Shown here: positions 3,397 through 22,411 of the stretch, one piece after another | Position numbering within the stretch: position 1 is the first letter of the stretch | Layout of the letters: each line of letters opens with the position of its first letter | Source: Bacteroidales bacterium UBA5072 | GTDB taxonomy: Bacteria > Bacteroidota > Bacteroidia > Bacteroidales > UBA10428 | Assembly (NCBI GenBank): GCA_002415855.1 | Contig: DIAS01000056.1 | Location: 2,274 to 66,273, forward strand | Direction of reading: 5' to 3' | DNA: 64,000 bases | Translations under genes and position numbers: made by a program | Notes under the pieces: generated by a model | The model's database searches: none | What the model saw: only the letters and a program-made list of their open reading frames with translations | What the model was told of the DNA's origin: nothing

Positions 3397-5409
3397 TTAC
3401 TCGATCACGTCCTTAAGCTGGCACAGGGAATAATTCCATAAAACATCGTGCATAAAAGCCGGGAATAACTTTTTAAGGAGTTTGTTTCGGAAATTGAAAC
3501 CAACATAAATGGATAACATAAATTCACCATCAATAAACTCACTGCCCTTCTTAAGTGGATCTATCTCAAAGAAAAATATCCCGCCCCTGCCAAAGCCGTC
3601 TAAAATCTCATAACTAATATGTTTCCCGGGAATTGCCTTTAACAATTGCAGACTGAATGATAATTGATCCGGATAAATATGATAACGAATAATACTGTCT
3701 GGCTGATTTGCTTCACCTGATATTCTTCTGATATCTATAAATCTTGGTTTGAAATACTTCCTGTCCTTATCCCCGAAATTACCCAGTTCTTCGTAAATTT
3801 TATCTCTTGGAGCGCTGATTCTGATGGAATACATTCTTTCAAAATCCAACGATCCTCTTCCCAGATTCCCGGAAAACTCTTTCCTAATGGCTTCTGTCCT
3901 GGCATCAAATACCTCCTTCTGAACCCCGGTTGTAAATCGTCCAAAATTACCCCATACCAGGCCAAAGAATAATTCAGTAATGTAGTTTCTTACTGTTACC
4001 AAAAGTCCCCCGGTAAAAATCGACCATATTACAAAGGGATGGAACATCGCAACAAGGATATTACTATAAGTATCTTCTCCGCTTGCCGTATTCCATAAGA
4101 TTTTCTCAAGTCTTCTGTGCTCCAGTGCCTGCGTTTTTCTTTCTGTGATAACCGCCTGGTATATTATCCTGCTTAACAAAGAGCTGCTGAAACATACTCT
4201 GATGAACAAAAATACCAGTTTACCCAGGGTGTTATTTGTCCGGTATTTTCTGATCACCGGACCGTATCCTTCTCTGAGGCTTCCTGTATCGATACCCCTT
4301 GTTAAGATGGTTTCAGAAAGTCTGGTTGATATTTCATAGGCAGAGCCTATCCCGTCTTTGTACAAATTGGAGGTAAACATATCTCCGATAACCGCAATCC
4401 TGTCACCATAAGGATTCTTAGCTACTCCGGTGACCATATTGGGGGTGCAAATGCAAATATTCTTTAGTTTTACCCCCTGCGGGAGTATTTTTCTTATGTG
4501 GGGCAAACCCATAAATTCATTTATTATCCTCAGGTTATCCTTTGTGGTTGCATTGTCGATGGTTTTACCAATTAATACCACGGTGATGTATTTTCCCTTG
4601 GGCGCTATGGAGATCATCTCTAATTTCAGGTTGCGTGATCCGTGCAGTATGAAATAGAGCTCTCTGTTTATTTTATGCATAAACCGGTCGGTGTCTCCTC
4701 CCTGCAGCTCAAATATTATGGCCTTTCTTAACCTGGGGGGCTTGAATCCCGGAATCATTTTATGAAGGTAGGAGACGGGCTGCTTTCCAACATCAAATCT
4801 ATCACCCACTACCCCGTTCACCCCTCCTCCAAATGCAACAAAGTCTGATACAATTATTTGACTGTTGCCGTCATAACGCACAACAACCCTTCCATCATCG
4901 GAATATTGCAGATCAGTAACCTCCGAATTGATAATCACTGCGCCTTCTTTTGCGGCGCTTTCCAATAAGAAAGTATCAAAATTATAAATACTGTCACTTC
5001 TGCCCCCGGGCCTTGATCCTCTGTATACCGAGGTCATTTCTTTCAAAACCTCCAGCGATATTGTTTTCCAATCGGCAAAGATATTTATGATAACCACCTT
5101 GTCCATAATGATTCCGACAGGCAGATGGAGCCCCATCTTCTTTAAGGCATCCCCAATCTTCGGACTTAATCCTCCTGCACAATAATTACACTCTCCTATA
5201 TGGCATTCCGATCTTTTTTGTTCATCAATATTCATGCTCTTCTTCTTTTCCATGATGATGACCGCTACCGATAAACCGATCTTTTTAGAATACCTTAAAA
5301 GATCAATAGCCAGGAATGACCCGGCAGGTCCGCCGCCAATAATAACCACTTTAGCGCCATCTGGTAATCGCAACCTTTTGTATGACTTGCCAAACGAATT
5401 CGGATTCAA
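3397..5409 (-). CDS. NAD(P)/FAD-dependent oxidoreductase with a long C-terminal extension
   Basis: Rossmann dinucleotide motif VVIIGGGPAGSFLAIDLL near the N-terminus, and a geranylgeranyl-reductase-like middle region. The C-terminal ~200 aa are of unknown fold. Confidence 0.6.
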   Translation of the reverse strand: MNPNSFGKSYKRLRLPDGAKVVIIGGGPAGSFLAIDLLRYSKKIGLSVAVIIMEKKKSMNIDEQKRSECHIGECNYCAGGLSPKIGDALKKMGLHLPVGIIMDKVVIINIFADWKTISLEVLKEMTSVYRGSRPGGRSDSIYNFDTFLLESAAKEGAVIINSEVTDLQYSDDGRVVVRYDGNSQIIVSDFVAFGGGVNGVVGDRFDVGKQPVSYLHKMIPGFKPPRLRKAIIFELQGGDTDRFMHKINRELYFILHGSRNLKLEMISIAPKGKYITVVLIGKTIDNATTKDNLRIINEFMGLPHIRKILPQGVKLKNICICTPNMVTGVAKNPYGDRIAVIGDMFTSNLYKDGIGSAYEISTRLSETILTRGIDTGSLREGYGPVIRKYRTNNTLGKLVFLFIRVCFSSSLLSRIIYQAVITERKTQALEHRRLEKILWNTASGEDTYSNILVAMFHPFVIWSIFTGGLLVTVRNYITELFFGLVWGNFGRFTTGVQKEVFDARTEAIRKEFSGNLGRGSLDFERMYSIRISAPRDKIYEELGNFGDKDRKYFKPRFIDIRRISGEANQPDSIIRYHIYPDQLSFSLQLLKAIPGKHISYEILDGFGRGGIFFFEIDPLKKGSEFIDGEFMLSIYVGFNFRNKLLKKLFPAFMHDVLWNYSLCQLKDVIE

Positions 5410-5583
5410 TGGATCGGAATTTAAATCGGATGAGTTAATTACATGAAAAGTATTCCCGCCAAAGTTAAGCCTTAATGCTATCTGAAGATAAATTTATTTT
5501 GGATCCTGTGAACTTCAGAAATTTGCCTGTCCGGTTCTGCCTGAAACAACTTGTCCCCTCAATTGTTTACCAGGGAATAACCA

Positions 5584-5919
5584 ATGTCTGCAAAAATGAA
5601 TTTGAGACAGAACAAGTGCAAACCCTGTGAAGGCGGCGTTGCGCCACTGGAAAAATCTGAAATCGGTTCATTCATGGAACAATTGCACGGCGATTGGAAG
5701 ATCGTGGATGAAAACAAGATATCCCGTGAATTTTCCTTTGTGAATTACAGGCACACCATTGACTTTGTGAACCAGGTGGCCGACCTGGCTGAACAGGAAG
5801 GGCATCACCCGGTTTTGCACGTTTATTATGCACGTCTTGTTGTGGAACTTTGGACCCATGCAATAAACGGATTGTCGGAGAACGACTTTATACTGGCAGC
5901 AAAAATCGATGGCATTTGA
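5584..5919 (+). CDS. 4a-hydroxytetrahydrobiopterin (pterin-4a-carbinolamine) dehydratase
   Basis: 111 aa. Motif FVNQVADLAEQEGHHPVLHVYYARLVVELWTH is typical of the PCD/DCoH family. Confidence 0.85.
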   Translation: MSAKMNLRQNKCKPCEGGVAPLEKSEIGSFMEQLHGDWKIVDENKISREFSFVNYRHTIDFVNQVADLAEQEGHHPVLHVYYARLVVELWTHAINGLSENDFILAAKIDGI

Positions 5920-5976
5920 AAATACCCATGCAATTCGACCCGGCGAATTTTCCATGCCAACCTGCATTGTGCTGAT

Positions 5977-6477
5977 TCAGTCTGCATTCAACAGATTGTC
6001 AAGGTTTTCCAGAGCAGCGGTAAATCCTTCTTTAAAGCCCATTTCCATGTACTTTTCTACATCCGAAGATTCATTAAAACTGATTTCGACACCAACAAAT
6101 GTTGTACCCGATCCTGGCTTAAACTCCACGTTCCAAGTTGGACTTGGTAACTTCAGATCAATTTTGCCATTTTCATCACAAAAAGCATCCTGACCGGTAA
6201 ATTTCTTCAAATGTAAAATGGATTTGTAATCCGACCTGCCCCAGATTTCAGTTCCATCCGGTCCTACCATGGCATATAACCAGTATCCGCCTTCCCTGAA
6301 ATCCATAACTTTGGTTTTAGATTGCCAGGGCTTTGGCGCCCACCATTGGTCCAGTAATTGGCTCTCCGTCCATGCTGCCCATACTTTTGAGACCGGTGCA
6401 GCAAATTCACGGCTTACCTTGATTTTATTATTTTCCTTATCAACGGAAAAATTCATTAACAACAGGTTACTTTTCAT
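5977..6477 (-). CDS. SRPBCC (AHSA1/Aha1-like) domain protein
   Basis: Motif [29 protein letters not shown]. Overlaps the upstream ArsR gene by 11 nt, a common ArsR-SRPBCC pair. Confidence 0.75.
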
Positions 6478-6793
6478 TTTCGTTTGAATTTAAGTTCATG
6501 AATAACTTGTCAAGCCGATCAAAACGATCTTCCCAATGCTTTTTAAACTGGTCCAACCATTTGTCTACTTCCTTCATTTTAACCGCATCAAAATGATAGT
6601 AAATCTCCCTGCCGACTTTATCCTGTTTTAATAACTGGCATTCTGTAAGAATTTTTATGTGTTTGGAAACTGCCTGACGGGTTATGTTGAATTCTCCTGC
6701 CAGAGCAGTTGGGGTCGTTGCCTGGGTGGCAATTAATACCAGAATTGCTCTTCGTGTGGGGTCGGCAATGGCTTGAAAAACATCGCGCTTCAT
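6467..6793 (-). CDS. ArsR/SmtB-family transcriptional regulator
   Basis: [18 protein letters not shown]...[13 protein letters not shown] is a winged-HTH signature. Confidence 0.85.
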
Positions 6794-6936
6794 TGCAAGA
6801 TTATTTAATGCAACTATTCGGTTGCAAATTTACATGCAATTGTCCGGTCGTGAGAATTTTTTGGTTATAAATTTCATCTAAATAAGCCCCTTACTCCCCA
6901 TGATTTTCAACGTAAATTTGTATTTAAAATATACCC

Positions 6937-7158
6937 ATGTCTACACTTAACAGGATTCTGATACTATCTGGAGTTATCCTTATCCTTGCCGGACTCATCC
7001 TTCATTTTGCCGGCAACAAATTAAACTGGATCGGTCATTTGCCCGGCGATATCAGGATTGAAAAGGAGACCTTCAGGTTCTATTTCCCGGTCACTACCAT
7101 GATTCTCCTCAGTATCATTCTTACTGGAATCTTATGGATCATCAGGAAATTGTTATAG
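6937..7158 (+). CDS. DUF2905 small membrane protein
   Basis: 73 aa with two TM segments and the motif HLPGDIRIEKE. Confidence 0.65.
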   Translation: MSTLNRILILSGVILILAGLILHFAGNKLNWIGHLPGDIRIEKETFRFYFPVTTMILLSIILTGILWIIRKLL

Positions 7159-7332
7159 ACAAAGCACTGTTTTAATGCCTGCAAAGGTTCTTTGAGACAG
7201 CCCCGGTCCAATAATGTATGGAATTGTCATCAACGAAGAAGCATCATGACATGACATAAATAAAATTGTGTGCTTTGGCAAATATTACCATTTACTTAAC
7301 TTATTTTTATTCCGGTAATAAGGATTTTAATT

Positions 7333-8346
7333 ATGGCATTTAAGGATAATTATTCCAAAGGCTGTAAAGCCTGTCAGAATGGTAAATGGTTATGCATTTT
7401 CCTTACTTATCAGTGCAATGCTGCCTGTACATTTTGTCCTGCTCCCTTTAAAAACAGGGATCTTATTAATTCTGCCCTGGGCAATGATCCATCCACCATA
7501 CTGGGATATCTGGAATTATACCCCTTCGAGGGGATTAGTTTTTCAGGAGGAGAATGTTTTATTGTTTATGACAGAATGCTTTCCTGGCTTGATTTTTTTA
7601 AAAAGAATCAGCCACAGTTATACTATTGGGCCTATACCAATGGAATCGATATCAAAAAGGAACAGCTCGTTGATTTAAAAAACGCCGGACTAAACGAATT
7701 GCGTTTTAATATTGCCGCTTCCGGTTATAATGATCCCTTGGTTTTAGAATCCATTGCAGATGCATCAGAAATCTTTGAGCATGTAACGGTTGAAATTCCA
7801 TCCATACCCGATGATTTTGAAAAACTCATTAAGACTATACCTCTGCTGGAGAAAATGCGGGTAGACTATTTAAATCTTCATGAATACCTCCTGGTTGCAG
7901 GTGATCCGAACAGCAAGAATGCTCCGGCAGGGCGGTTCCTTATGAACCTTAGTATGCCTATGGATTATCATCAGAAAAGCTTGCTGAATACTGAGAAAAT
8001 AAGTTCTTTTTGTGCCGAGAATGATTTTAACATAAAAATAAACAACTGTTCGCTCATGAAAAAGGAGCATCAGATGTATGGAAGAAGAATAACCATGGGT
8101 ACGCTGTTTAAAGAAGATCATGAAAAGCTTACGAAGGATGGATTTCTTGAAACAATATTCTCCCCGGGGAGAATTTCTGATGAGGTGGATGAAAACCTAA
8201 GTAACTATCATAGGGCAGATCGGTCATATTTCATTCATCCAGATCACTTTACGAAAACCGGATCCGATGCTTATCTGTTAAAGATTATGCCAAAACTGGG
8301 TGTAAATGACCACCCCAGAGTCATTGAGTACACAAAGCTCACATGA
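7333..8346 (+). CDS. radical SAM protein with no SPASM tail
   Basis: CxxxCxxC motif LTYQCNAACTFCPAP and a GGE motif SFSGGECF. An extra N-terminal Cys pair is present (CKACQNGKWLC). First gene of the plus-strand operon. Confidence 0.75.
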   Translation: MAFKDNYSKGCKACQNGKWLCIFLTYQCNAACTFCPAPFKNRDLINSALGNDPSTILGYLELYPFEGISFSGGECFIVYDRMLSWLDFFKKNQPQLYYWAYTNGIDIKKEQLVDLKNAGLNELRFNIAASGYNDPLVLESIADASEIFEHVTVEIPSIPDDFEKLIKTIPLLEKMRVDYLNLHEYLLVAGDPNSKNAPAGRFLMNLSMPMDYHQKSLLNTEKISSFCAENDFNIKINNCSLMKKEHQMYGRRITMGTLFKEDHEKLTKDGFLETIFSPGRISDEVDENLSNYHRADRSYFIHPDHFTKTGSDAYLLKIMPKLGVNDHPRVIEYTKLT

Positions 8347-9674
8347 ATAATTCTTCAACATCCCACCGGTATGAGATCTCGTTCCCAGGAGGTAGAATTG
8401 TTTATCTTCCGCTGGAAGGCAGGATAATTGACATTACCGGAAAAGGAACAATTGTACTGCCTGACAAACGAAAGATTGGAATTATGATGGATCTCATGGA
8501 AGGCATGGATCCTGTGACAACAGCATTCAAGCCTGTTTGCCTGACAATATACACCAGTCACCAATGCAATCTTCAGTGTCAGTATTGTTATGTGCCGGAC
8601 AAAGAGTTGTATCCGAAAACAATTGTGGCTTCCGCCGCGGTTGATGCAGCTGCCAGGTTTGTGGCCAAAAATTGCCGGGAAAGGAAGCAGCCCTTTATCC
8701 TTGGTTTTCACGGCGGCAACGAACCCCTGATGAACCTGGGAAAAATCGAAGATCTCATTCATATTGCCGAATCTGTTGCGCAGAAAAATGATCTGGAGTT
8801 TTTGCCCTTCTGTACCACCAATGGCGTTATCCCTGAAAAAACGGCCAAATGGGCTGCCGGCATCTTTCACGGAATAACGCTTTCATGGGATGGCCCTCCG
8901 GAAATACACGACAAATACCGAAAGGATAAGTTGGGGAGAAATACCAGCCCCCAGGTCAGAAAAACGGTCGGTATCTTCAGTGATCTGATGGATCCCGGGA
9001 GACTGTCTGTACGCTGTACCATTTCCGGGGCTTCTGTGGAAAGGATGGAAGAATTGGCAGAGTATTTCAACAGGGCCGGCATAAAGCGTGTCGAGTTTTA
9101 TCCGGTTTTTAATGTCCCTGAAAAATCACTCCGGAAGGATTTAATACCTGATCCCGGGAAATTTGCATATAATTTTACTAAGGCCAGGGCTTATGGCGAT
9201 GCAAACGGGATCCAGGTCTGCTTCTCAGGTTCCAGGATCACAGATTATCACGGAAGGTATTGCATGATCCTGCAGGATAACCTGACAATAACTCCGGATG
9301 GTTTTCTGACAAACTGTTTCTTTCATACCCAGAATTATGAAAATGAATATGATCAGTATTTCTATGGCCAATTTCATCCTGAAAAGGGTCAGTTGGTAAT
9401 GCACCGGGAGAAACAGAACAGGATGAAGACAGGTTCCGTTTCCAGGCTCGTCGTGTGTTCGGATTGTTTTAACCAGTTCCACTGTTCGCAGGGATGTCCG
9501 GCAGTGTGTCCATTCGATGAAAACTTCCATGAATCAGACACTCCTGAATGCATCAAGGAAAAATGGCTGGGATTGGCCGCCATCTTGGGAAATGCAGGTT
9601 ATTTGAGAACATTTGACAGTGAAATATCGTTTGTTGAATTTTTTTCCGGTATAACAGTTCATCGATTGTCTTAA
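8343..9674 (+). CDS. radical SAM/SPASM peptide-maturase-like enzyme
   Basis: SHQCNLQCQYCYVP, GFHGGNEPLMN, and a C-terminal twitch/SPASM-like Cys cluster CMILQDNLTITPDGFLTNCF ... CSDCFNQFHCSQGCPAVCP. ATGA overlap with the upstream rSAM gene. Confidence 0.85.
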   Translation: MNNSSTSHRYEISFPGGRIVYLPLEGRIIDITGKGTIVLPDKRKIGIMMDLMEGMDPVTTAFKPVCLTIYTSHQCNLQCQYCYVPDKELYPKTIVASAAVDAAARFVAKNCRERKQPFILGFHGGNEPLMNLGKIEDLIHIAESVAQKNDLEFLPFCTTNGVIPEKTAKWAAGIFHGITLSWDGPPEIHDKYRKDKLGRNTSPQVRKTVGIFSDLMDPGRLSVRCTISGASVERMEELAEYFNRAGIKRVEFYPVFNVPEKSLRKDLIPDPGKFAYNFTKARAYGDANGIQVCFSGSRITDYHGRYCMILQDNLTITPDGFLTNCFFHTQNYENEYDQYFYGQFHPEKGQLVMHREKQNRMKTGSVSRLVVCSDCFNQFHCSQGCPAVCPFDENFHESDTPECIKEKWLGLAAILGNAGYLRTFDSEISFVEFFSGITVHRLS

Positions 9675-9954
9675 TGCAGCAAGGAAATTTTTCATGAGGA
9701 AGCGGTTAGCAGCAGAACCATACTCGGATCAGTACGCTTGATGTGCCACACAGCTTGTTGAATCAATTCGCCACTCCCGGTAGCATCCGTAAATCGCTTC
9801 AGTCAGAACTTGACAAAGTCCCTGATATTTATTACATTTGATCAAAGATGGAAAGAATGGCTATTATTCCGGTATTCATGGAAGAATCGCTGTTCATCAT
9901 TTTTTCCAACTGATGTCACTGACAGGCCAATTTATTTGATAAAGTCATGATCTT

Positions 9955-10401
9955 ATGAAAGAAACACATAACCGTCGTGTATTCCTGCAAATTGTGACAA
10001 AAGGTATCCTTTTAGGAACAATATCTTTTGGCTATTTTAAATTAGGAAAATCGTTTGAATTATCCCCCCCGGGTGATCGGATGAAGGCTCAGATTCCAAA
10101 AATTAATCCGGCCTTCAGGGTGAATGTTTTAAATGACGGTTCGGTCGAATTGTATACGCATAAGCCGGGTGGAGAAAAGGTTATTTATACGTTTGAAGGA
10201 TTTGAGGCAGAAACCCTCTTAACCATTCTTAAGCATGGAGATCCCAGTTTGTACTCACAGGAATTGGGCCTTAAATTTAATATCAGGGAAAATGATTTCA
10301 TTTCTATGGCTGAATCAACATTACGATCAATGGAGAACAAAGGATTTATCTATTATGGTGAAACAATGCTCGTAGAAATAAAGGAAGCAAGAAATGAGTA
10401 A
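9955..10401 (+). CDS. PqqD-like (RRE-like) protein with an N-terminal twin-arginine-like / TM segment
   Basis: Residues ~48-135 (PKINPAFRVNVLNDGSVELY...FEGFEAETLLTILKHGD...LRSMENKGFIY) follow the PqqD beta-strand plus winged-helix pattern. The N-terminus HNRRVFLQIVTKGILLGTISFGYF resembles a Tat signal or membrane anchor. 8-nt overlap with the downstream rSAM gene. Confidence 0.5.
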   Translation: MKETHNRRVFLQIVTKGILLGTISFGYFKLGKSFELSPPGDRMKAQIPKINPAFRVNVLNDGSVELYTHKPGGEKVIYTFEGFEAETLLTILKHGDPSLYSQELGLKFNIRENDFISMAESTLRSMENKGFIYYGETMLVEIKEARNE

Positions 10402-11722
10402 ATCATTCAGGATCTCTAGTGATCTTTTTACAATCCCTCATGAGGGTGATATTTCCATACTCTATGCCCCTAAGTTAGGCTATCTCATCAGAGCGAACAA
10501 GGATGTGATCAATCTGCTGGCTGACTTACCCAAGATCGACAGTGATCTCCTGAATGAAAAACAACGCAAGGTCCTTCAGCACCTGGAAGAACACGGTATA
10601 TTAAACGGTCCCTCCGAACCTGAAACAGGGAAAAACGGACAGGATGCATTTGCTCCTACCAGGGTCACCTTATTTCCCACCAACCAATGCAACCTGAGAT
10701 GCATTTATTGTTATGCTTCGGCAGGTGAACATCCTCCTGTGACAATGAATTGGATCTACGCCGTTTCAGCCATTGAAACGGTTATCAAAAATGCTTTAAA
10801 TACCGGTGATAAAAACATCAGTGTCGGTTTCCACGGGGGCGGCGAACCTTTGCTCCCCTGGAATTTTATAAAAAAGGTCACTGGCTATGTCCAGGAAGAA
10901 TGCAGAAAGAATAATCTGAATGTAAGCATTTATTCGGCTACCAACGGATTGCTGAGTGAGAAACAGCTTGAATGGATCACCGGGCATTTTTCTGATCTCA
11001 ACATCTCCTTTGACGGACTGCCGCATGTTCAGGACTATCACAGGCCACTGCCCAATGGCCGGGGTTCATTTAAATATGTTGACAGGACATTCAGATTTCT
11101 GGACAACAAAGGCTTTAACTATGGGATAAGAAGCACGTTCAGCGATTATAACATCGACCTGATGGAAGAGAGTTACGATTTCATTGTAGCGCATTACCAT
11201 CCAAGAACAATACATTTTGAACCTGTATTTCAATGCGGAAGATGCAAGACCAGCGGGCAATTCGATACAAACCTCGAAAAATTCGCCCGTTATTTCAAAA
11301 AAATAGATGATAAGCATGGGGACAAAAAGGTAAGATTTACCTATTCCGGATGCAGGGTTGAGACCCTGGCCGATTCCTTCTGCGGAGTTGCACGTGATGG
11401 TTTCTCTATCACCCCCGATGGTCATATAACAGCATGTTTCGAAACCACATCCCTGGAAGATCCAAAATCAAGGTATTTCTTTTATGGAAAAATTGATGAA
11501 AACAGGAACATCAACATCGATGAGGAAAAAAGGAATTACCTGCATCATTTAACGGTTGATAACATAAGGTACTGCAAGGATTGTTTTGCAAAATGGCATT
11601 GCGCAGGGGATTGTGCTGCCAAGCTCGGCCACGATGACCTTCATGGTGACCGGGGACATGACCGCTGCCTGCTCAACCGGCGAATGGTTAAGGATAAACT
11701 GGTCAGCATGCTCAGCATATAG
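10394..11722 (+). CDS. radical SAM/SPASM peptide-maturase-like enzyme
   Basis: FPTNQCNLRCIYCYASAG, GFHGGGEPLL, and a SPASM-like tail CGVARDGFSITPDGHITACF ... CKDCFAKWHCAGDCAAK. The N-terminal ~90 aa look RRE-like. Confidence 0.85.
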   Translation: MSKSFRISSDLFTIPHEGDISILYAPKLGYLIRANKDVINLLADLPKIDSDLLNEKQRKVLQHLEEHGILNGPSEPETGKNGQDAFAPTRVTLFPTNQCNLRCIYCYASAGEHPPVTMNWIYAVSAIETVIKNALNTGDKNISVGFHGGGEPLLPWNFIKKVTGYVQEECRKNNLNVSIYSATNGLLSEKQLEWITGHFSDLNISFDGLPHVQDYHRPLPNGRGSFKYVDRTFRFLDNKGFNYGIRSTFSDYNIDLMEESYDFIVAHYHPRTIHFEPVFQCGRCKTSGQFDTNLEKFARYFKKIDDKHGDKKVRFTYSGCRVETLADSFCGVARDGFSITPDGHITACFETTSLEDPKSRYFFYGKIDENRNINIDEEKRNYLHHLTVDNIRYCKDCFAKWHCAGDCAAKLGHDDLHGDRGHDRCLLNRRMVKDKLVSMLSI

Positions 11723-11754
11723 TGCATAGAATTGCTTAATATAACTACTTACTT

Positions 11755-12165
11755 ATGGCCCGGACCAAACCCCCAAACGACAGGTTAAAAGTAACCGACG
11801 GATTGCAAAATGATAATCCGGAGATAAGGGATACCATTAAGCTCAAAGTCCCCGATAAAGAGGTGCACATCATGCAGCCCGAGGAACAGCCTCCTGCAGG
11901 GGGTGGGGGCAGCAGCGGCGGGACCTGCTCCTGCCATTCGGTATGTACCTGTGTGCCGGTAAGCTCGTGTGCCTGTAACATGGTATGCACCTGCGATACC
12001 GTATGCAGCACGGATCTTTGTTCCTGTCATCCCTATTCAGGCTGCACACCGCACACCTGCACGTGTGTCCCGGTATGTTCGTGTGACTCCTATTGCACTA
12101 CTTGCTCCACCTGCTCTACCTGCTCTACCTGTACAACAGGTGGAAGTTACTGGTATCCCTGTTGA
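11755..12165 (+). CDS. Cys-rich putative precursor peptide (56-aa Cys-free leader plus 80-aa core with 22 Cys)
   Basis: Leader ...QPEEQPPAGGGGSSGG is followed by TCSCHSVCTCVPVSSCACNMVCTCDTVCSTDLCSCHPYSGCTPHTCTCVPVCSCDSYCTTCSTCSTCSTCTTGGSYWYPC. It lies 32 nt after an rSAM/SPASM gene. No signal peptide. Confidence 0.65.
   Translation: MARTKPPNDRLKVTDGLQNDNPEIRDTIKLKVPDKEVHIMQPEEQPPAGGGGSSGGTCSCHSVCTCVPVSSCACNMVCTCDTVCSTDLCSCHPYSGCTPHTCTCVPVCSCDSYCTTCSTCSTCSTCTTGGSYWYPC
12094..12132. repeat. 9-nt tandem repeat (tgcWCYacY) encoding C-T-T / C-S-T x3 / C
   Basis: Direct read: tgcactact tgctccacc tgctctacc tgctctacc tgt. Confidence 0.8.
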
Positions 12166-12204
12166 TTCTTGCTTTGATCCTTCAGTTGTAAAATCCAGAA
12201 AACC

Positions 12205-14739
12205 ATGATAACCAAAAGAATCCTGTTGCTTTCGGTGTTTATTTGCTTCCATTGGTGTCTGTTTGCGCAAACACCGGGAACTATGAAATGGGTGTTCACA
12301 ACCGGTAATGATGTTTCATCCTCCCCTGCTATTGGAAGTGATGGGACGATTTATGTAGGTTCAGAGGATAGCAAGTTGTATGCGATAAATCCGAATGGGA
12401 CAAAAAAATGGGAGTTTTTAACCGGGGGGAGTATATATATTTCTTCCCCTTCTGTTGGGATTGACGGAACAATCTATGTTGGTTCCTCTGACAATAAAGT
12501 TTATGCGATAAATCCTGATGGTACAAAAAAATGGGAGTTTACAACCGGGGGAATAATTTATTCTTCACCTGCCGTAGGATTCAATGGAACTGTATATATC
12601 GGTTCCAGTGATTTTAAACTGTATGCTATTAATCCCGATGGAACGGAAAAATGGGAGTTTTCTACAGGAAGTTGGGTGGATTCCTCCCCGGCAATTGGCA
12701 TTGACGGAACAGTTTATATAGGTTCCTGGGATAATACATTGTATGCTGTGAATCCTGATGGTACCAAGAAATGGGAATTCTCTGCCGATAATTGGATTGA
12801 TTCCTCCCCGGCAATAGGGAGTGACGGAACGATCTATGTCGGATCATTTGATAATAAAATATATGCAATAAATCCTGGCGGTACGAAAAAATGGGAGTTC
12901 TCAACTGCCGGAGCTAATAGTTCTTCACCGGCTGTTGGGATTGAAGGTACAATCTATGTTGGTTCCGGGGACGGCAAAATATATGCCATTAACCCTGACG
13001 GCACTAAAAAATGGGAGTTTCTAACCACCGGAGTTGTTAGCTCTTCGCCAGCAATAGGGAAAGACGGTACAATTTTCATTGGCTCATCACTTAATAGAAT
13101 GTACGCACTTAATCCTGATGGCACCAAAAAATGGGAGTTTTCAACCGGATTGGGTTCTTACTCCTCCCCTGCCATTGGAAGTGATGGCACAGTTTACATA
13201 GGTTGTGATGCCAGTTATCTTTATGCCGTTCGCTCGGATTGCGGAGGCCTGGCCGAAAGCTGCTGGCCTAAATTCAGAAAAAACATTGTGAACAATGGCA
13301 GTGCAGCCGCTGCTATTTATGCTGATACCAGGTTTTATGCAAAATTTACAAATGCTGCATCTCTTTCATTTGAAACCGATTTTTATAAAATACCGGGCAA
13401 ACCTGTTATCATTACCGGGATAAAATTGAGTAACAGCAATCTGTCAGCTGGATTATCGTTACCATATACACTCAATGCGGATAATACCGAATTCTTCATA
13501 CCACTCAACATGTCCAATCCACATACCGGCCTATGTGCGACGGCTATTGAACTTCAGTACCTTTATGACGGTGTTGCAATGACCAGTACGGACTACCTGG
13601 ATCTGGCCGTAATTGTTGATGACCACACGGAATTAAGCGTGGTCGGTAAAAGTGCCGTTGAGGCTTACCAGGCTTCCCTGGATGTTAATCCGATTGCAGT
13701 TGTGAATAACAAAGGCGTGATCTACAGGTTGCTGGATGAACCTGAAAAAGCCAAACCGCTCTTTAATACTGCCGTTAGTCTTGCCCTTGGGGAGTTTTAC
13801 GGATTTACCGGCATCAAAATGAATCAGGGGGTGGTCATGTCTGATCTTGGTTATAATGCGGACGCTGTGGGTTATTATGCCAACACCCTGGCGGATCTGA
13901 CAGGAGTGGAATCATCATCGGTTTTAGCGCCCCAGGTGTATTACAACCAGGCCTGGGAATATTATAATTCTGAAAGTTTTAATGACACAAAGACCAAAGC
14001 CCTCCAGACCATCAATCACCCGAAAGCAAACAACTTTCTCAAAGCGAAAGCCTATGTTTTATTAGGTTTATGCGATGCAGCCCTGGAAGATACCGCAACA
14101 GCCATTGATCACCTGCAGGATGCCGTTGATCTTGATCCTGCTTCCTGTATCGCAGAAATCGCAAAGGAGGACATTTGCATCCTGAGCACTGACCAGTATG
14201 AAAGAATATCCATTTGTGAAGGTGAAAGTTATGCGGGACTTACCGAATCCGGACAATACCTGCGCAAACTGGGATCAGGGACCGGCAGCACCAGTTATGT
14301 AATTACCATCCTGACGGTAAATCCGAAATATGACATTGCTATTGACACCACGATCTGTGAAGGGCAGAGCTATAACGGGTGGACCACAACCGGTGAGTAT
14401 GTGCAGAACCTGACTTCATCATGTGGTTGTGATAGCACAGTCACAACGTTGCTCACAGTGAAGGATTGTTCTTCTGGTATTGAACAAATGCAAAACATTA
14501 CATTTATCATTTATCCGAACCCAAGCAACGGTGATATTACAATAATGATCCCGGATAAATCTGCCGGTTCGCTTTTCATTGAGATCCAGGATATGACAGG
14601 TAACATTGTATTCAGCAACATGTTGCATTGTACAGAAAGCACTTGCAGGATTCATCTTGATCATATGCCGGCCGGAGTGTACTTTATTTCTGTTGAAAGC
14701 AGGGGAAAGAGGACTACCAAGAAAGTGATGATCTATTGA
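12205..14739 (+). CDS. secreted 8-bladed PQQ-like beta-propeller protein with TPR-like middle region and T9SS C-terminal sorting domain
   Basis: Signal peptide, then eight ~40-aa repeats (GTKKWEF.T.G.I.SSPAIG.DGTIYVGS.D.KLYAINPD). Two CEG.SY.G...G.Y...L....GCDS repeats follow. C-terminal IYPNPSNGDITI...GVYFISVES...KKVMIY is a Por/T9SS CTD. Confidence 0.8.
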   Translation: MITKRILLLSVFICFHWCLFAQTPGTMKWVFTTGNDVSSSPAIGSDGTIYVGSEDSKLYAINPNGTKKWEFLTGGSIYISSPSVGIDGTIYVGSSDNKVYAINPDGTKKWEFTTGGIIYSSPAVGFNGTVYIGSSDFKLYAINPDGTEKWEFSTGSWVDSSPAIGIDGTVYIGSWDNTLYAVNPDGTKKWEFSADNWIDSSPAIGSDGTIYVGSFDNKIYAINPGGTKKWEFSTAGANSSSPAVGIEGTIYVGSGDGKIYAINPDGTKKWEFLTTGVVSSSPAIGKDGTIFIGSSLNRMYALNPDGTKKWEFSTGLGSYSSPAIGSDGTVYIGCDASYLYAVRSDCGGLAESCWPKFRKNIVNNGSAAAAIYADTRFYAKFTNAASLSFETDFYKIPGKPVIITGIKLSNSNLSAGLSLPYTLNADNTEFFIPLNMSNPHTGLCATAIELQYLYDGVAMTSTDYLDLAVIVDDHTELSVVGKSAVEAYQASLDVNPIAVVNNKGVIYRLLDEPEKAKPLFNTAVSLALGEFYGFTGIKMNQGVVMSDLGYNADAVGYYANTLADLTGVESSSVLAPQVYYNQAWEYYNSESFNDTKTKALQTINHPKANNFLKAKAYVLLGLCDAALEDTATAIDHLQDAVDLDPASCIAEIAKEDICILSTDQYERISICEGESYAGLTESGQYLRKLGSGTGSTSYVITILTVNPKYDIAIDTTICEGQSYNGWTTTGEYVQNLTSSCGCDSTVTTLLTVKDCSSGIEQMQNITFIIYPNPSNGDITIMIPDKSAGSLFIEIQDMTGNIVFSNMLHCTESTCRIHLDHMPAGVYFISVESRGKRTTKKVMIY
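12283..13230. repeat. eight tandem ~120-nt coding repeats (propeller blades)
   Basis: The atgggagtt(t/c) (KWEF) landmark recurs at 12408, 12531, 12651, 12771, 12891, 13011 and 13131. Confidence 0.85.
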
Positions 14740-14776
14740 ACATCGCCCTGCAAGGATATATTTATTTTTCATTGGC

Positions 14777-15862
14777 TCAGGCAAATAAAATCCCTGCCTT
14801 ATGCATAATCACTGAAATATTGATATGATTCGGGCATCTTTCTTCGCAACTTTCACAGGCAATGCAGCAATCAGCCGTTACATCAAGCATGTGGTAATCC
14901 CGCTGAAAGAAGTTTTTCCCCTTGACCATATTGAATTGATTCCATAGGCCGATTACTTTTGGAATATCAATACCCTGCGGACAGGGTAAACAATAATTGC
15001 AGCCTGTACAAAGAACAAGCCTTTCATCTCTTTCCTGCGCGACCATTTCATTAATGAACGCAGTATCAATAGGGGAAAATCTCTCCCCTCCTTCGATTTG
15101 GATGTTGCTGTCAATTTCTGATTTTGTCTGCATTCCCGAAAGGACACAATGAACATGTGGATTGGAATACGCAAATTTTAAAGCAATTGCCGGGATGGTT
15201 GCATGGAAATATTCTCTAAGCCTGGGAAAATCCACAAACGAATCTGTAAGTACTCCCCCGGCCAGCGGATTCATAACGATCACTCCCAATCCTCTGTTGT
15301 ATGCATATTGAATGGCATCTTCATAGGTACGATTGAGCATATTGTATGAAAGTATAACTGCATCAAAAGGTCCCGCATCAATAAGCTTTATAATGTTTCC
15401 GGGAGTGTCATGACTGCTGAATCCCAGGTACCTGATCAGACCATCTCTTCTGGCCCGGTGAACCTGTTCGATGATCCCTTCTGCCAGAAAATGCTTCTCC
15501 CATGACTTGTATTCCAAATAATGGATGAAATAAAAATCCAGTGCTTCCCTATTATAAAGATGCAGTGTATTTTTCAGTTGCGCTGTCCAGTTTCCAGGAT
15601 CAGACAGATGGGTCGTGTTTTTGCCGCTTAAAATGACTGCTGGTTTCTGGTCATTTATTGCCAGACCAAAGACTTTTTCACATTGAAAATGACAATAGAA
15701 GGTCCCGATATCGAAAAAGTTGATTCCAGTCTTTAAGGCATAATGCATTAAAGATATGGCTTCTGTAAAATCAATTGATTGCGGTGCAATGGGCAGCCTC
15801 ATCGCCCCAAACCCAAGTGCAGAAATATAAAAGTCAGTATTTCCAAATTTTTTATAATCCAT
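14777..15862 (-). CDS. aldo/keto reductase with C-terminal 4Fe-4S ferredoxin-type domain
   Basis: AKR N-terminus (ISALGFGAMRLP). C-terminal CTGCNYCLPCPQGIDIP ... CIACESCEERCP. The start overlaps the stop of the 1121-aa gene by 11 nt. Confidence 0.8.
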   Translation of the reverse strand: MDYKKFGNTDFYISALGFGAMRLPIAPQSIDFTEAISLMHYALKTGINFFDIGTFYCHFQCEKVFGLAINDQKPAVILSGKNTTHLSDPGNWTAQLKNTLHLYNREALDFYFIHYLEYKSWEKHFLAEGIIEQVHRARRDGLIRYLGFSSHDTPGNIIKLIDAGPFDAVILSYNMLNRTYEDAIQYAYNRGLGVIVMNPLAGGVLTDSFVDFPRLREYFHATIPAIALKFAYSNPHVHCVLSGMQTKSEIDSNIQIEGGERFSPIDTAFINEMVAQERDERLVLCTGCNYCLPCPQGIDIPKVIGLWNQFNMVKGKNFFQRDYHMLDVTADCCIACESCEERCPNHINISVIMHKAGILFA

Positions 15863-18800
15863 ACTGCATCAATTCTTCCACCATTTTTGAAATATGCCAT
15901 GATCCGGAACCGGTAAGCCGGAATTCACTATCCGATTTCTCAATAAGGTCATAACTCAACCACTTTTCAAAGAGTGTCTCCATTTTAAAGTAGGTGACAT
16001 CACTCTCCGGAACGATACCACCGATCAGTCGTGCTTTAATCAAACGTCGTTCCAGTTCCCTGGGCTTAAGATATCCACCACCCTGCAGTGGAGGAGAAAT
16101 CATTTGTTTATGAGACAGATACTCTTCAATCCACTGATGTACATAGTAGTAGTCATCAAAAATACCATCTGCCGTCGGACCCAGGGCCAGCAAATCTTCA
16201 TTCCGGCATACATGATTGTAATACAGGTTTCTATCCTCTTTCTTGGCATAATGTACAAAATGATTCTTCTTATACCCCGATCGGATGAGATATTGGTCTG
16301 CCAGTTGAAAAAGAAAATAATCATAAACCGGTGATCTTTTAAAACCTCCAATATTAGCAAAGAAAGCCTTGTTCTTATCGGTGATGTTCAATTGATACAG
16401 GGAGAAACCGTGTATTCCGGATTTGCATAACTCAGCCAACGTATGTAACAATGATCCCGCATGCTGAAAAGGAAGGCCGTAGAGTACATCAACGGAAACT
16501 ACAAAACCCATTTTCATGGCGTCCTCAAGTTTTAATAATACCTCCCGGGCCGTTTCTTTTCGGCCCAAAATCTTCCTGATTGGATCATCCAGGGTTTGAA
16601 CCCCAACCAGTAACCTGCGAAATCCTGCTTCAGACAATATCCTAAGCTGTTCCCCGGAAAGCAAGCTGGTTGTGGACTCCAGCGCTATTTCAGTGGTGTC
16701 GGTGATTTTCAATCCCTTTCTCAAACGATCGGTTAAAGCATGGAGTTTTTCCGGCGGCAAATAGCCAGGAGTCCCTCCGCCAAAATGAATGCTTGTTACC
16801 GGCCTTTCGGTGATATTGGAATTTTGCGTCCACAATGCTATCTCTGAAAGCAGAAGCCTCGTAAATTCGGATATTTTTTCAGCGTTTCTTTCAGGAACGG
16901 CCATGGAATAACAATCACAAAAGTTACACTTCCTGTCGCAAAAAGGAACATGCACATATAACGAATAAGGACTGGAAACTGGTTTTGAGATCTTCTCCTG
17001 AAGGACCTTCCAGCACTTATCCGGGCCATGGAGTAATCCGTTTTCCAGCCATTCAGGTGAAGGCATGGTTTTCAATCTGTTGTGGTAATCTCCGGGGACC
17101 TTTTCCCATTGCTGCTGTATCCTGTCAAAATCCGTTTCAGGCGGGATCTGATGTTCAATCCGTTGAATAACCCTTTCGAACTTATCCGTATTCTTCTTCT
17201 TTTTTCTCAGAATCTGCTGACTTTTCTTGCCGGAAGCTGCTGTCATTTTTTTCTCCCAATAGACCCGGCAATAATTACAGGAAAAGCAATTATGATCACA
17301 ATACAAAGTGTGCTTAAAGAACGCCTGGTCAATATCAATAGACTCGTTTACGGAAGCAGGTCCTCCGCCGATCTCATTTGGGCTCAGGTCTTTTCCCTTA
17401 AAGTAATGCGTAAGGACTTTCAGGTAATTATCCGGGTTTCTCAGTGTACTCCTGCCTGCGAGCTTCAGGTCATCATATAATCCATCATACAGGTCAAGGA
17501 ATTGTGGCAATATCCATGCACCGGTCAGACGAAGCCAGGGATGCCGGAAAAGCAGCTCCCGGCAAAGTGACTCAGGATGTCTAATACCTGGTGATCCCAT
17601 TTCATAAAAATGCTGTATCCGGTGAACGCAACCAGGTAGACAGGCCTCATTAACGAGCAGACGAATTTCACCCTGGAAGCATTTTCTGATTTGGTTCAAT
17701 ACTGCTATATTTCTCAGGATCTTTCCGGAAGGAACGACAGTGTCAAACAATCCTTCCAGCATGATTAACTGGGAAGATGATGCAATATCCATCAAGGTGG
17801 AAGCCGTAAGGGATATTTCAGGAAATTCCTTTCTGATCAATCGTGCCAGATCAACATTTGACAAGGTAATTTCCCGGATTTCAGTTTTTTTGATGATCTT
17901 TTCAATTTGCTGAATAATTGAAGGTCCGATTTTTTCAACCTTATCAGGTAAAACGATAGGATTGATGATCAGGTTCTTTTTGCACTTTGTTTCTTCCAGG
18001 AAAGATGCCAGATGTATCATCGGTTGAACCGGACGTCCTGAAGGTATTGTAGTGTCTGGCAAAGGAAAATAAATACCACGAATGCTTTCCCCATGAACGG
18101 AATTGAGTTTTTCCCAGAATTCTGGCGGTTGGTCAATATAGGGAATGGTGTATTTTGAGGCGACTGCATTTTTCTTGCTGCTGTCATTGACCGTCCCTCC
18201 CCCTGCTTGAATAATTTCCAAGCCTGATTTGAGATATGCCGTTGACGGAACCGGCTGCCCGTTCTCTATTCTCTTAAACCGGTTCAAAACCTGTGCCCTG
18301 CACCCTCCATAACATTCACCCTTGAGGAAGAGATCACATTTCGTGCAGTGGGGGAAAATCCCGGTCGACCTGAAAGGTTCCATTTTTTTAAGAAATACCT
18401 TTCCTATCTCGCCGGTATCCTGATAATCACTCAGCTTTAACTTTTCAGTGGCATGAAAAAGGGGAAAACACGAAACAACATTTCCATCCGGCAGTATATC
18501 AGGGAGAGGATTACACCTTTTTCCAATGTCTTTATAATGTTCTTCAATCATTTCTTTAAGTTCCTCAGGGAACATACATGGGACAAAACCACAATCGAAA
18601 CTTATCCGAACGTTCTTGCCGGACGCATCCTGAAGAAACCGAGCCAGATGGTTACCTGTAGCCTGATAGAATTTAGGATGAAGATATTGATTGGCAGGTG
18701 GTACAACAGGATGCGCAAGCCCTAGCCTGATATCAGGAGCAAGGTTGTACCTTTCGATCATTGGCAAAACATAGTCCAGATCCTGCCCGGGACGATAGAT

Positions 18801-19217: not shown

Positions 19218-19218
19218 A

Positions 19219-19488
19219 CTATGAGCTTAATAAACTGCTGACGATCCAACTGTCAATATTCTTCAACATCCAGAGCACAGTTTCCGGCTTATCCTTTTTT
19301 AAAATCGGGGCCAGCATATCGGACATTGCGGTAAATGAATAACCCTGCTGGATCATATTCCACAAAGCTGCTTCCGGATATGGAATAACTACCATTTTGT
19401 TCAGATCTCCCGAATAAACCTTGATACAGTTAACTTCAGTCGCATACTCAATCTGCCCGTTCAGGCTATATCTGGTCTTAGGATTCAT
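19219..19488 (-). CDS. PqqD-like (RRE-like) small protein
   Basis: 89 aa. KMVVIPYPEAALWNMIQQGYSFTAMSDMLAPIL...WIVSSLL fits the PqqD pattern. 11-nt overlap with the upstream rSAM gene and a 1-nt gap to the downstream fusion gene. Confidence 0.5.
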   Translation of the reverse strand: MNPKTRYSLNGQIEYATEVNCIKVYSGDLNKMVVIPYPEAALWNMIQQGYSFTAMSDMLAPILKKDKPETVLWMLKNIDSWIVSSLLSS

Positions 19489-22384: not shown

Positions 22385-22411
22385 GGTTCATGGATTAAGG
22401 TGGATAAAAAA

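Follow-up and report, generated by a model that had tools for sequence, protein, structure and literature searches.

What is encoded by an open reading frame (ORF) of 136 codons that places 22 cysteines in its last 80 residues and is surrounded by genes for radical S-adenosylmethionine (SAM) enzymes? The question is raised by the ORF at 11755..12165 in a 64,000-nucleotide stretch of contig DIAS01000056.1 from Bacteroidales bacterium UBA5072 (this whole stretch is referred to below as the window). According to the original prediction, made from the DNA letters, the ORF consists of a leader, a hinge and a core and is a substrate of the nearby enzymes with SPASM domains. This proposal is supported by the homologs of the peptide, by synteny and by the best-matching models of the enzymes, which are of the thioether type and from which we infer the chemistry. 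What the comparisons establish directly is a conserved coding gene, its obligate neighbors and their domain content. The reading favored here, for which the balance stands about even, is that the peptide is a leader-guided substrate for multiple Cys thioethers that would be exported by twin-arginine translocation (Tat) on a Tat-tagged chaperone and would act together with an envelope propeller protein.

A conserved gene for a cysteine-rich peptide

The gene and its parts are the following:

11755..12165, plus strand, precursor gene, 136 amino acids plus stop, recognized by translation, 33 homologs and purifying selection in frame
11755..11922, plus strand, leader, residues 1-56, Cys-free with a Gly-rich hinge at the end, from the alignment of homologs
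11923..12162, plus strand, core, residues 57-136 with 22 Cys, from the alignment, evolving more slowly than the leader
12094..12131, plus strand, 9-nt tandem repeat TGCTCTACC in 4.2 copies, coding for the variable C(S/T)TC run, from Tandem Repeats Finder
12148..12162, plus strand, C-terminal motif YWYPC at the protein end, YWYPN in most homologs

Translation bears out the layout that was read from the letters: residues 1-56 lack Cys and end in PPAGGGGSSGG, and a recount of residues 57-136 gives 22 Cys, 15 Thr and 13 Ser, that is, 50 of 80 residues. The seven CxC doublets (TCSC, VCTC, SCAC, VCTC, LCSC, TCTC and VCSC) are located at residues 58, 64, 72, 78, 89, 102 and 108, respectively, and the CxxC run CTTCSTCSTCSTC (residues 114, 117, 120 and 123) is indeed encoded by the 9-nt repeat. 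An N-terminal hydrophobic signal is not present, in agreement with the stated absence of a signal peptide. Given that Cys makes up 1.36% of the residues in the ORFs of 200 amino acids or more in the window, the probability of at least 22 Cys in 80 residues at this background frequency is about 1e-22; among the ORFs of at least 40 amino acids in the window, the precursor is the most Cys-rich one, and no other comes near.

A search of 5.8 billion proteins identifies 33 homologs of the precursor (E-values from 5e-58 to 8e-16) that can be aligned over the full length, between the first Met and the stop. All are annotated as “hypothetical” and none contains a Pfam domain; similarly, the precursor itself matches no Pfam or NCBIfam family at E-values up to 0.1. 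Both the leader and the core, which the original prediction had proposed to compare, are conserved in the alignment. The conserved motifs of the leader are P7-x-D9-R10 and K31-I/V-P33-D34-K35-E36-V-H-I-M40-Q-P-x-E44, and the pattern in the homologs is P-N-D-R near the N-terminus, then IKIPDKEVHIMQPDE, then the Gly hinge. The core follows the consensus GGTCSCHSVCTCVPVSxCxCxMVCTCDxVCSTNxCxCxPFxGCxxHxCxCxPVCSC, with the Cys arranged in CxC hexads of the type V-C-T/S-C-D/N-x and 15 Cys positions that are invariant or at least 90% conserved, and continues into a Cys-Ser/Thr segment of variable length, in which the C(S/T)TC run encoded by the 9-nt repeat differs in length between homologs. The terminal YWYP plus one residue is almost invariant (Y132 and P135 are at least 90% conserved), with Trp133 swapped for Tyr, Phe, Ile or Arg in several homologs. 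The final residue is Cys in the closest clade (homologs P0001-P0006 and loci L006, L007 and L010) and in the more distant locus L020; most other lineages have Asn at this position, and a few have Ser or Thr.

In the comparison with the three closest orthologs, the synonymous sites are saturated (proportion of synonymous differences, pS, of 0.7-0.8) while the proportion of nonsynonymous differences (pN) is low (core, 0.10-0.12; leader, 0.15-0.25), which implies strong purifying selection on the 11755..12165 frame. Thus, this is a genuine conserved coding gene. The region is, as had been noticed, GC-rich and open in multiple frames (local GC of 0.57 compared to about 0.40-0.45 in the flanks, with four more overlapping ORFs of 77-88 amino acids in other frames), features that would fit a spurious ORF kept open by stop-poor sequence; however, the full-length homologs in several phyla, the saturated synonymous sites combined with little amino acid change, and the conserved synteny effectively refute this explanation, the probability of which is negligible. 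Selection constrains the core more than the leader, which is unusual for a peptide that is synthesized ribosomally and modified post-translationally (RiPP) and speaks for a structural role under constraint and not for a diversifying toxin. AlphaFold2 (AF2) modeling of the precursor from an alignment of 34 sequences yields no secondary structure (predicted local distance difference test, pLDDT, of 42), which says only that there is no autonomous fold. A promoter and terminator scan finds no terminator between the precursor gene and the next gene and otherwise gives nothing useful for a genome of the Bacteroidota type.

Conserved gene neighborhood

The neighborhoods were taken from the contigs encoding the homologs and from 25 loci on one-genome-per-species contigs, and were compared by tblastn with the proteins of the window (loci are designated by the letter L and a number). 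The gene directly upstream of the peptide gene is an ortholog of the same radical-SAM/SPASM enzyme, denoted here maturase B, in 18 of the 18 related loci, with 47-72% identity between the B proteins, so that the constant association with such genes that the original prediction had proposed to check is indeed observed. An ortholog of a small protein of 148 amino acids is encoded upstream of maturase B in each of the same 18 loci (16 detected by tblastn and two by reading frame). These loci come from Rikenellaceae and Bacteroidales metagenome-assembled genomes (MAGs), Cytophagia, Rhodothermales, Ignavibacteriae, KSB1, a MAG labeled as Bacillota, and the isolate Desulfonema limicola. More broadly, there are over 1,100 relatives of the maturase at an E-value of 1e-40 or better, and members of the family are found in Bacteroidota, Rhodothermota, Ignavibacteriota, Chloroflexota, Acidobacteriota, Desulfobacterota and KSB1. 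A full-text literature search found no published description of this system.

In the window, the conserved system spans about 7333..20896 on both strands and includes six radical-SAM domains around a single Cys-rich ORF. The minus-strand genes are convergent with the plus-strand genes and have counterparts both in loci where the peptide has its own gene (split type) and in loci where a similar Cys-rich module is fused to a larger protein (fused type; see below). Many loci also contain orthologs of maturase A and of the small radical-SAM protein 7333..8346 as well as a second B-like paralog. The closest relatives of the window locus, L006, L007 and L010, have no gene for maturase A or the small radical-SAM protein within 8 kb upstream of the small protein. 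The window has a non-coding gap of 280 bp (9675..9954) at the site that the second B-like maturase occupies elsewhere; no remnant of this paralog was detected in the gap, which contains a sigma-70-like promoter match at 9810..9838. Neither family scans nor the comparison of related loci identified a protease or a transporter conserved in the cluster. The twin-arginine signal on the PqqD-like protein, the extension of the system on the minus strand to about 20896 and the tails fused to WD40 propellers go beyond the original prediction.

Radical-SAM and other enzymes

The enzymes encoded in the window are the following (cut-offs for the PapB and SCIFF maturase models are given below):

10394..11722, plus strand, maturase B, radical-SAM/SPASM, 442 amino acids; PapB 141.3 bits, SCIFF maturase 115.0 bits, both below cut-off
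8343..9674, plus strand, maturase A, radical-SAM/SPASM, 443 amino acids; PapB 98.1 bits, SCIFF maturase 87.6 bits; in many but not all loci
19478..20896, minus strand, radical-SAM/SPASM-type maturase, 472 amino acids; PapB 119.6 bits, SCIFF maturase 112.5 bits
7333..8346, plus strand, small radical-SAM protein, 337 amino acids, weakly HxsC-like, with no SPASM match (Pfam, NCBIfam)
15852..19217, minus strand, fusion of 1121 amino acids: small radical-SAM domain, U32-like middle part and HemN/ChuW-like (class C) radical-SAM domain (Pfam)
14777..15862, minus strand, aldo/keto reductase fused to a 4Fe-4S dicluster domain (Pfam)
19219..19488, minus strand, conserved ORF of 89 amino acids after the fourth SPASM-type enzyme, homologous to L022 11710..12060

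Maturase B contains a CxxxCxxC motif (C99, C103 and C106) and the SPASM Cys residues C330, C348, C394, C397, C403, C407 and C425, all invariant over six divergent members; the Pfam Radical_SAM domain is detected above the cut-off whereas the SPASM match is weak. These motifs place the protein in the radical-SAM/SPASM superfamily. Its best match in the PDB is CteB (5wgg, E-value of 1e-25). The best curated model for maturases B and A and for the 472-amino-acid enzyme alike is PapB (NF047865, cut-off of 340 bits), and all three score below this cut-off as well as below that of the SCIFF maturase (TIGR03974, 425 bits). The QhpD model (TIGR03906, cut-off of 453) yields 84.6 bits for B, 62.9 for A and 80.7 for the 472-amino-acid enzyme. 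The scores with the sactisynthase models are likewise below the cut-offs (RumMC, 64.7 against 720; StsB, 47.2 against 625), with a PDB match to SkfB at an E-value of 1.6e-7.

PapB, CteB, NxxcB and the related QhpD join Cys by thioethers to side-chain carbons of Asp, Glu, Thr or Asn (PMC8326336; PMC7876137), and ranthipeptides are defined by a thioether between the Cys sulfur and the beta- or gamma-carbon of another residue (PMC8326336). The hexads of the core place Asp, Asn, Thr and Ser beside each Cys. Because the maturases resemble PapB, the SCIFF maturase and CteB, and the hexads supply acceptors, thioether laddering is the best-supported candidate for the chemistry.

The 472-amino-acid enzyme has orthologs with 30-41% identity in the fused-type loci L021-L023, L026, L027, L029 and L030, and the small radical-SAM protein 7333..8346 has orthologs with 42-49% identity in L008, L012, L014, L016, L018 and L020 and with 32% identity in the fused-type locus L021. 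The three parts of the 1121-amino-acid fusion are separate genes in both split-type and fused-type loci; the NCBIfam ChuW/HutW model matches the fusion with 204 bits, below its cut-off. Some U32-family proteins are oxygen-independent hydroxylases, and by analogy the U32-like part hints at hydroxylation under anoxia. Orthologs of the reductase 14777..15862 adjoin the system in L006, L007 and L017.

Two candidates for additional leader-binding domains were rejected. The original prediction counted two PqqD-like proteins in the window, of which the second, presumably the 89-amino-acid ORF 19219..19488, is not confirmed as such, with no Pfam match and an hhalign probability below 1%. The N-terminal domain of maturase B is not claimed to be a RiPP recognition element (RRE) of its own, its hhalign probability against the PqqD-like family being 8%. 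In two loci, maturases of the B type are split. In D. limicola (L004, CP061799), the first B-like maturase consists of a 67-amino-acid ORF for the N-terminal domain and a radical-SAM/SPASM ORF (6843..7046 and 7040..8167), which could be due to a frameshift, a pseudogene or a sequencing error; in the Ignavibacteriae MAG (L017), the maturase B ortholog lies in two adjacent frames (5334..6026 and 6028..6654), probably as the result of a frameshift or an assembly error.

A small protein with a twin-arginine signal

The third constant member of the neighborhood is the small protein:

9955..10401, plus strand, 148-amino-acid protein with a twin-arginine signal or anchor and a putative PqqD-like, RRE-type domain, from the family profile and a Pfam scan of family members

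The window protein contains the sequence NRRVFLQ followed by a hydrophobic segment, which fits the Tat motif of the S/T-R-R-x-F-L-K type. An exhaustive HMMER search yielded 57 representatives of this family, 48 of which were aligned and scanned singly. Over these 48 representatives, R7, R8 and F10 are at least 90% conserved, and the Pfam scan detects PqqD in 19 (best E-value of 3.6e-6), TAT_signal in 15 and the Rieske Tat signal (UCR_Fe-S_N) in 21. A search of the PDB started with the family profile finds a weak match to the PqqD chaperone of a lasso peptide (E-value of 0.046). Independent support for the PqqD assignment comes from L025, from an Acidobacteria MAG, where a protein starting with MQRRHFIR, encoded beside a Cys-rich peptide and a B-like enzyme, matches PqqD with 51.9 bits compared to the cut-off of 23.4. 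In this locus, the Cys-rich peptide (9983..10348, 121 amino acids) ends in Tyr-rich repeats and lacks YWYPN; its gene lies between the B-like radical-SAM gene and the gene for the PqqD protein with the RRHFIR signal (about 10452..10892), and a second PqqD protein, without a signal, is encoded at about 12530..12814.

A similar cysteine-rich tail fused to WD40 propellers

Loci of another type (L021, L022, L023, L026, L027, L029 and L030) were retrieved with the pattern VC[TS]CD..VC and come from Anaerolineae, Flexilinea, Leptolinea, Bacteroidales, Porphyromonadaceae and a gammaproteobacterium. Each encodes a protein of the same layout, 440-620 amino acids long, in which a short N-terminal extension is followed by a twin-arginine signal, a WD40 propeller and a Cys-rich CxC tail. 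These proteins, together with the one from L007, are:

L021, 8312..10180, fused protein
L022, 9008..10378, fused protein
L023, 8798..10189, fused protein
L026, 8765..10150, fused protein
L027, 8732..10150, fused protein
L029, 8786..10153, fused protein
L030, 4570..5895, fused protein
L007, 14764..16227, fused protein

All eight tails terminate in YWYP or YWHP followed by a single N, T or C; in the seven fused-type loci, the ending is HYWYPN, HYWHPN or HYWYPT. The signals are of the SRRDFL type and end in an AxA site or a lipobox, and in L026 the signal scores above the cut-off of TIGR01409. The fused genes are surrounded by orthologs of the same enzymes, with four to five radical-SAM genes per cluster; in L021, counterparts of every radical-SAM and U32-like part of the window set are arrayed around the fused substrate. 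The locus L007, a close relative of the window, contains both forms within 5 kb: the split system and, 2 kb downstream of the gene for the partner protein described below, a fused protein that ends in SHYWYPC. Two ORFs of fused-type loci, one of 174 amino acids in L026 and one of 165 amino acids in L022, were considered as PqqD-like proteins and rejected (probabilities against the family of 1.7% and 33%, respectively).

A secreted propeller/TPR partner

The gene that follows the peptide gene encodes a large secreted protein:

12205..14739, plus strand, 844-amino-acid protein with a Sec signal, a PQQ/BamB-like beta-propeller, a beta-sandwich plus TPR module and a C-terminal sorting domain of the type IX secretion system (T9SS) (Pfam, NCBIfam)
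13315..14184, plus strand, conserved beta-sandwich plus TPR module of this protein, from the alignment; its PDB matches are TPR proteins only

All related loci for which enough sequence is available encode the beta-sandwich/TPR module. Its usual company on the N-terminal side is a PQQ/BamB-like propeller, replaced in Desulfonema by LamG and PKD domains. TPR modules commonly bind C-terminal peptides, a habit that would fit the invariant terminal YWYP of the precursor. In L011 (9058..13454), L014 (10420..14967) and L018 (7874..10971), two or three paralogs of the partner gene lie in tandem downstream of the peptide gene.

Flanking genes

A sensor histidine kinase (21026..22384, minus strand) and an NtrC-type sigma-54 response regulator (22412..23788, minus strand) are encoded directly upstream of the minus-strand radical-SAM genes, and this two-component pair (21026..23788) may regulate the radical-SAM system. 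On the other side of the system lie 6937..7158 (plus strand), encoding a DUF2905 membrane protein (Pfam, 6.8e-24), and two minus-strand ORFs, 6467..6793 and 5977..6477, which by eye have the look of an ArsR-type regulator and an SRPBCC/AHSA1-type protein, respectively. No link of the ORFs at 5977..7158 to the system is seen in other loci.

A proposed mechanism and its alternatives

The mechanism that appears most compatible with these observations is the following. The 136-amino-acid peptide would be made in the cytoplasm, where its conserved leader is probably held by RRE-type domains. By analogy with PapB and CteB, the SPASM enzymes (B, A and the 472-amino-acid protein in the window, with a fourth paralog elsewhere) may well, with chances that appear evenly poised, turn many of the 22 Cys into intramolecular thioethers; the acceptors would be the carbons of the neighboring Asp, Asn, Thr and Ser of the V-C-T-C-D-x hexads, and the product would be a rigid, sulfur-rich ladder. 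The two small radical-SAM domains, the HemN/ChuW-like and U32-like domains and the reductase could tailor the peptide further. The gene fusions suggest, still with more doubt than confidence, that the finished peptide could leave the cell by Tat with its leader still bound to the twin-arginine PqqD-like protein, a form of “hitchhiking”. Such co-export with the chaperone is proposed because there is no conserved protease or transporter, because the leader-binding protein carries a Tat signal, and because the fused versions carry their own. Tat hitchhiking of partners that lack a signal is an established mechanism, e.g., in PaoABC (PMC4273604; PMC10924467). Once exported, the peptide might, as the more tentative end of the scheme, work in the envelope with the beta-propeller/TPR protein, the TPR module of which may grip the terminal YWYP; the product would then be a structural or a ligand- or metal-binding appendage rather than a diffusible antibiotic.

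Several observations weigh against this reading. The maturase scores are far below the cut-offs of the characterized families (141 against 340 bits for PapB), so that the reaction could differ. The small protein of the window itself has no direct Pfam match to PqqD (PF05402). Its AF2 model, built from a four-sequence alignment with a topology of three strands followed by three helices as expected of the winged-helix fold of PqqD domains, has low confidence (pLDDT of 55), so that its top Foldseek match, the lasso-peptide RRE TbiB1 with leader (probability 0.90, E-value of 0.05), is only suggestive. There is no clear signal-peptidase site in the signal region of the small protein, and accordingly this region could be an uncleaved membrane anchor. 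A search for TatA motifs in the window and the loci gave no match, although this result is uninformative because tat genes are usually located elsewhere in the genome. For the fused proteins, the core profile detects the tails with 8-16 bits, the tails being short and of low complexity, and the reversed-sequence control reaches 8.7 bits, within the same range. Homology of the tails is therefore not claimed from the profile scores; with these near the control, the link rests on the shared motif, the terminal position of YWYP and the enzyme set. The match of the leader profile to the fused N-termini is weak as well, and L022, the sole match with 8.3 bits, provides a hint that the precursor and the fused proteins may share the leader.

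Among the alternatives, it is unlikely, although far from negligible, that the peptide is a conventional secreted RiPP, a bacteriocin or a signal, which is crosslinked, loses its leader and is exported as a core with the help of a protease and a transporter that are unlinked to the cluster; the PqqD-like protein would be no more than the RRE that recruits the enzymes, and its RR-hydrophobic segment would merely tether the maturation complex to the membrane. The arrangement of leader, Gly-Gly hinge and core, the SPASM maturases adjoining the peptide gene and the PqqD-like partner, which is typical of RiPP clusters, agree with this alternative, as do the lack of a clear cleavage site in the signal of the small protein and the resemblance of 21 of the 48 family members to the uncleaved Rieske Tat anchor. 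However, a PqqD domain on a Tat anchor would lie outside the cytoplasm and be separated from the enzymes, and the 18 loci contain no conserved protease or transporter. Furthermore, the core surpasses the leader in conservation and is nearly identical across phyla, unlike diversifying antimicrobial cores, and a similar tail with the same ending belongs to Tat-signal propeller proteins of 440-620 amino acids; a tail on such large proteins points to protein modification rather than to a small natural product.

The fusion to propellers, or else strict linkage to them, would suit a less probable explanation, namely that the peptide is a small crosslinked subunit of an extracytoplasmic enzyme or complex, embedded in the propeller partner like the gamma-subunit of quinohemoprotein amine dehydrogenase (QHNDH) or the light chain of methylamine dehydrogenase (MADH), with the Tyr/Trp C-terminus possibly converted to a protein-derived cofactor by the HemN-like, U32-like and reductase enzymes. 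QhpC is a precedent for a leader-bearing peptide that is thioether-crosslinked in the cytoplasm and then becomes periplasmic (PMC7876137); maturase B and the 472-amino-acid enzyme match the QhpD model with 80-85 bits, several extra redox-type enzymes are present, and Y132 and P135 of the terminal motif are conserved. Conversely, the substitution of Tyr, Phe, Ile or Arg for Trp133 in several homologs counts against it, the QhpD model is matched with scores that fall far short of its cut-off of 453, the propellers are of the scaffold type (BamB/PQQ_2-like or WD40) with no catalytic signature found, and the scanned cluster genes include no cytochrome and no protease, transporter or monooxygenase of the QhpE, QhpF or QhpG type, respectively. 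The chance is slim that the peptide instead uses free thiols to hold Cu, Zn, Cd or Fe-S, as a metallothionein-like or Fe-S/metal-binding peptide exported by Tat in the loaded form, with the radical-SAM enzymes serving another substrate or only loading a cofactor. The CxC spacing resembles that of metallothioneins, of which it is typical, and AF2 finds no ligand-free fold. Proteins loaded with a cofactor usually take the Tat route (PMC5936819). Nevertheless, this alternative, raised already by the original prediction, has no metallothionein or ferredoxin family match in Pfam and NCBIfam to support it and leaves the strict and universal linkage to four to seven radical-SAM domains unexplained; a metal-binding peptide would not need a conserved leader and hinge, the window cluster offers no other candidate substrate, the precursor being by far the most Cys-rich ORF, and the CxC spacing is unlike the usual CxxCxxCxxxC Fe-S motif.

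Returning to the favored reading of a crosslinked peptide exported on its chaperone, it is possible, if on the doubtful side, that the locus represents an undescribed maturation-and-export system in which as many as six or seven radical-SAM domains turn a Cys-rich module (free in the window, fused to WD40 propellers elsewhere) into an appendage with a thioether ladder and further tailoring. The free form would cross the membrane by Tat on a Tat-tagged RRE carrier, and the product would be part of an envelope protein and not a diffusible natural product.

Significance and comparison with known systems

If the proposed mechanism is correct, the system would be a widespread, wholly uncharacterized family that blurs the distinction between RiPP natural products and post-translational modification of proteins. 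A core of 80 residues with 22 Cys on which six radical-SAM domains act would rank with the most densely modified of all known ribosomal peptides and would be a source of new radical-SAM chemistry. The small protein would be the first leader-binding chaperone that doubles as an export tag, and its twin-arginine signal suggests a simple exit route for RiPPs without a dedicated transporter. Both the fixed partnership with the propeller/TPR protein and the strong conservation of the core suggest that the peptide serves in the envelope of anaerobes rather than as an antibiotic. The combination of this export logic with the role of a protein appendage might, against the balance of probability, amount to something new in kind.

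The resemblance to metallothioneins is confined to the high Cys content, the CxC motifs and the lack of an aromatic-rich fold; unlike metallothioneins, with which there is no family match, the present peptide combines obligate radical-SAM neighbors with a leader and an aromatic C-terminus that are both conserved. Repetitive Cys-rich cores accompanied by SPASM maturases are also found in the CcpA/CcpM and CefA/CefB (Cys at every fifth position), CXXX-repeat and TIGR04463-partner groups, but the respective maturase scores are far below the cut-offs (CcpM, 83.5 against 500; CefB, 82.4 against 600; CXXX-repeat, 60.2 against 350; TIGR04463, 75.6 against 525), the precursor models are not matched, and there are differences in Cys spacing, terminal motif and accessory genes.

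With respect to export, the proposed route is similar to that of known Tat hitchhikers, such as PaoABC and the small and large subunits of hydrogenases, in which a twin-arginine partner carries a signal-less one after cytoplasmic maturation (PMC4273604; PMC10924467). The carriers in these known complexes are enzyme subunits that bear a cofactor, whereas here a PqqD-like domain would be the carrier, with a crosslinked peptide as the passenger; the literature search found no case of an RRE-type Tat carrier with a crosslinked peptide passenger.

The closest parallels come from two directions. The beta-subunit of QHNDH is a beta-propeller. QhpC, which is modified by QhpD, is likewise a small leader-bearing polypeptide; it receives thioethers from a SPASM enzyme in the cytoplasm and then works in the periplasm as part of a multi-subunit enzyme (PMC7876137), a course comparable to the one proposed for the precursor. 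In contrast, QhpC has four Cys and a Trp-derived quinone, compared to 22 Cys here; QhpC is exported with the QhpE protease and the QhpF ABC transporter, neither of which was found among the cluster genes scanned, the proposed route being Tat; and the heme subunit and the QhpG/flavin monooxygenase were not found among these genes either.

The ranthipeptide/SCIFF systems (CteA/CteB, freyrasin PapA/PapB and NxxcA/NxxcB) share with the present one a leader-bearing, Cys-rich precursor that adjoins radical-SAM/SPASM maturases, the PapB and SCIFF maturase models are the top curated matches and CteB is the top structure, and potential acceptors (here Asp, Asn and Thr) are located beside Cys in the core, a feature shared with freyrasin, which has six Cys-Asp bridges (PMC8326336). 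The differences are that the maturases score 98-141 bits, to be compared with the cut-offs of 340 and 425; that the 80-residue core contains 22 Cys in CxC hexads instead of six Cys in about 45 residues, within a 136-amino-acid precursor that does not match the curated SCIFF precursor model; that each system has four to seven radical-SAM domains instead of one; that the Tat signal on the RRE, the obligatory propeller/TPR partner and the protein-fused versions are peculiar to the present system; and that it is found in Bacteroidota, Chloroflexota, Desulfobacterota and others instead of Clostridia and Bacilli. The system works most like the maturation of ranthipeptides/SCIFF and of QhpC by QhpD, and it falls short of all their curated thresholds.

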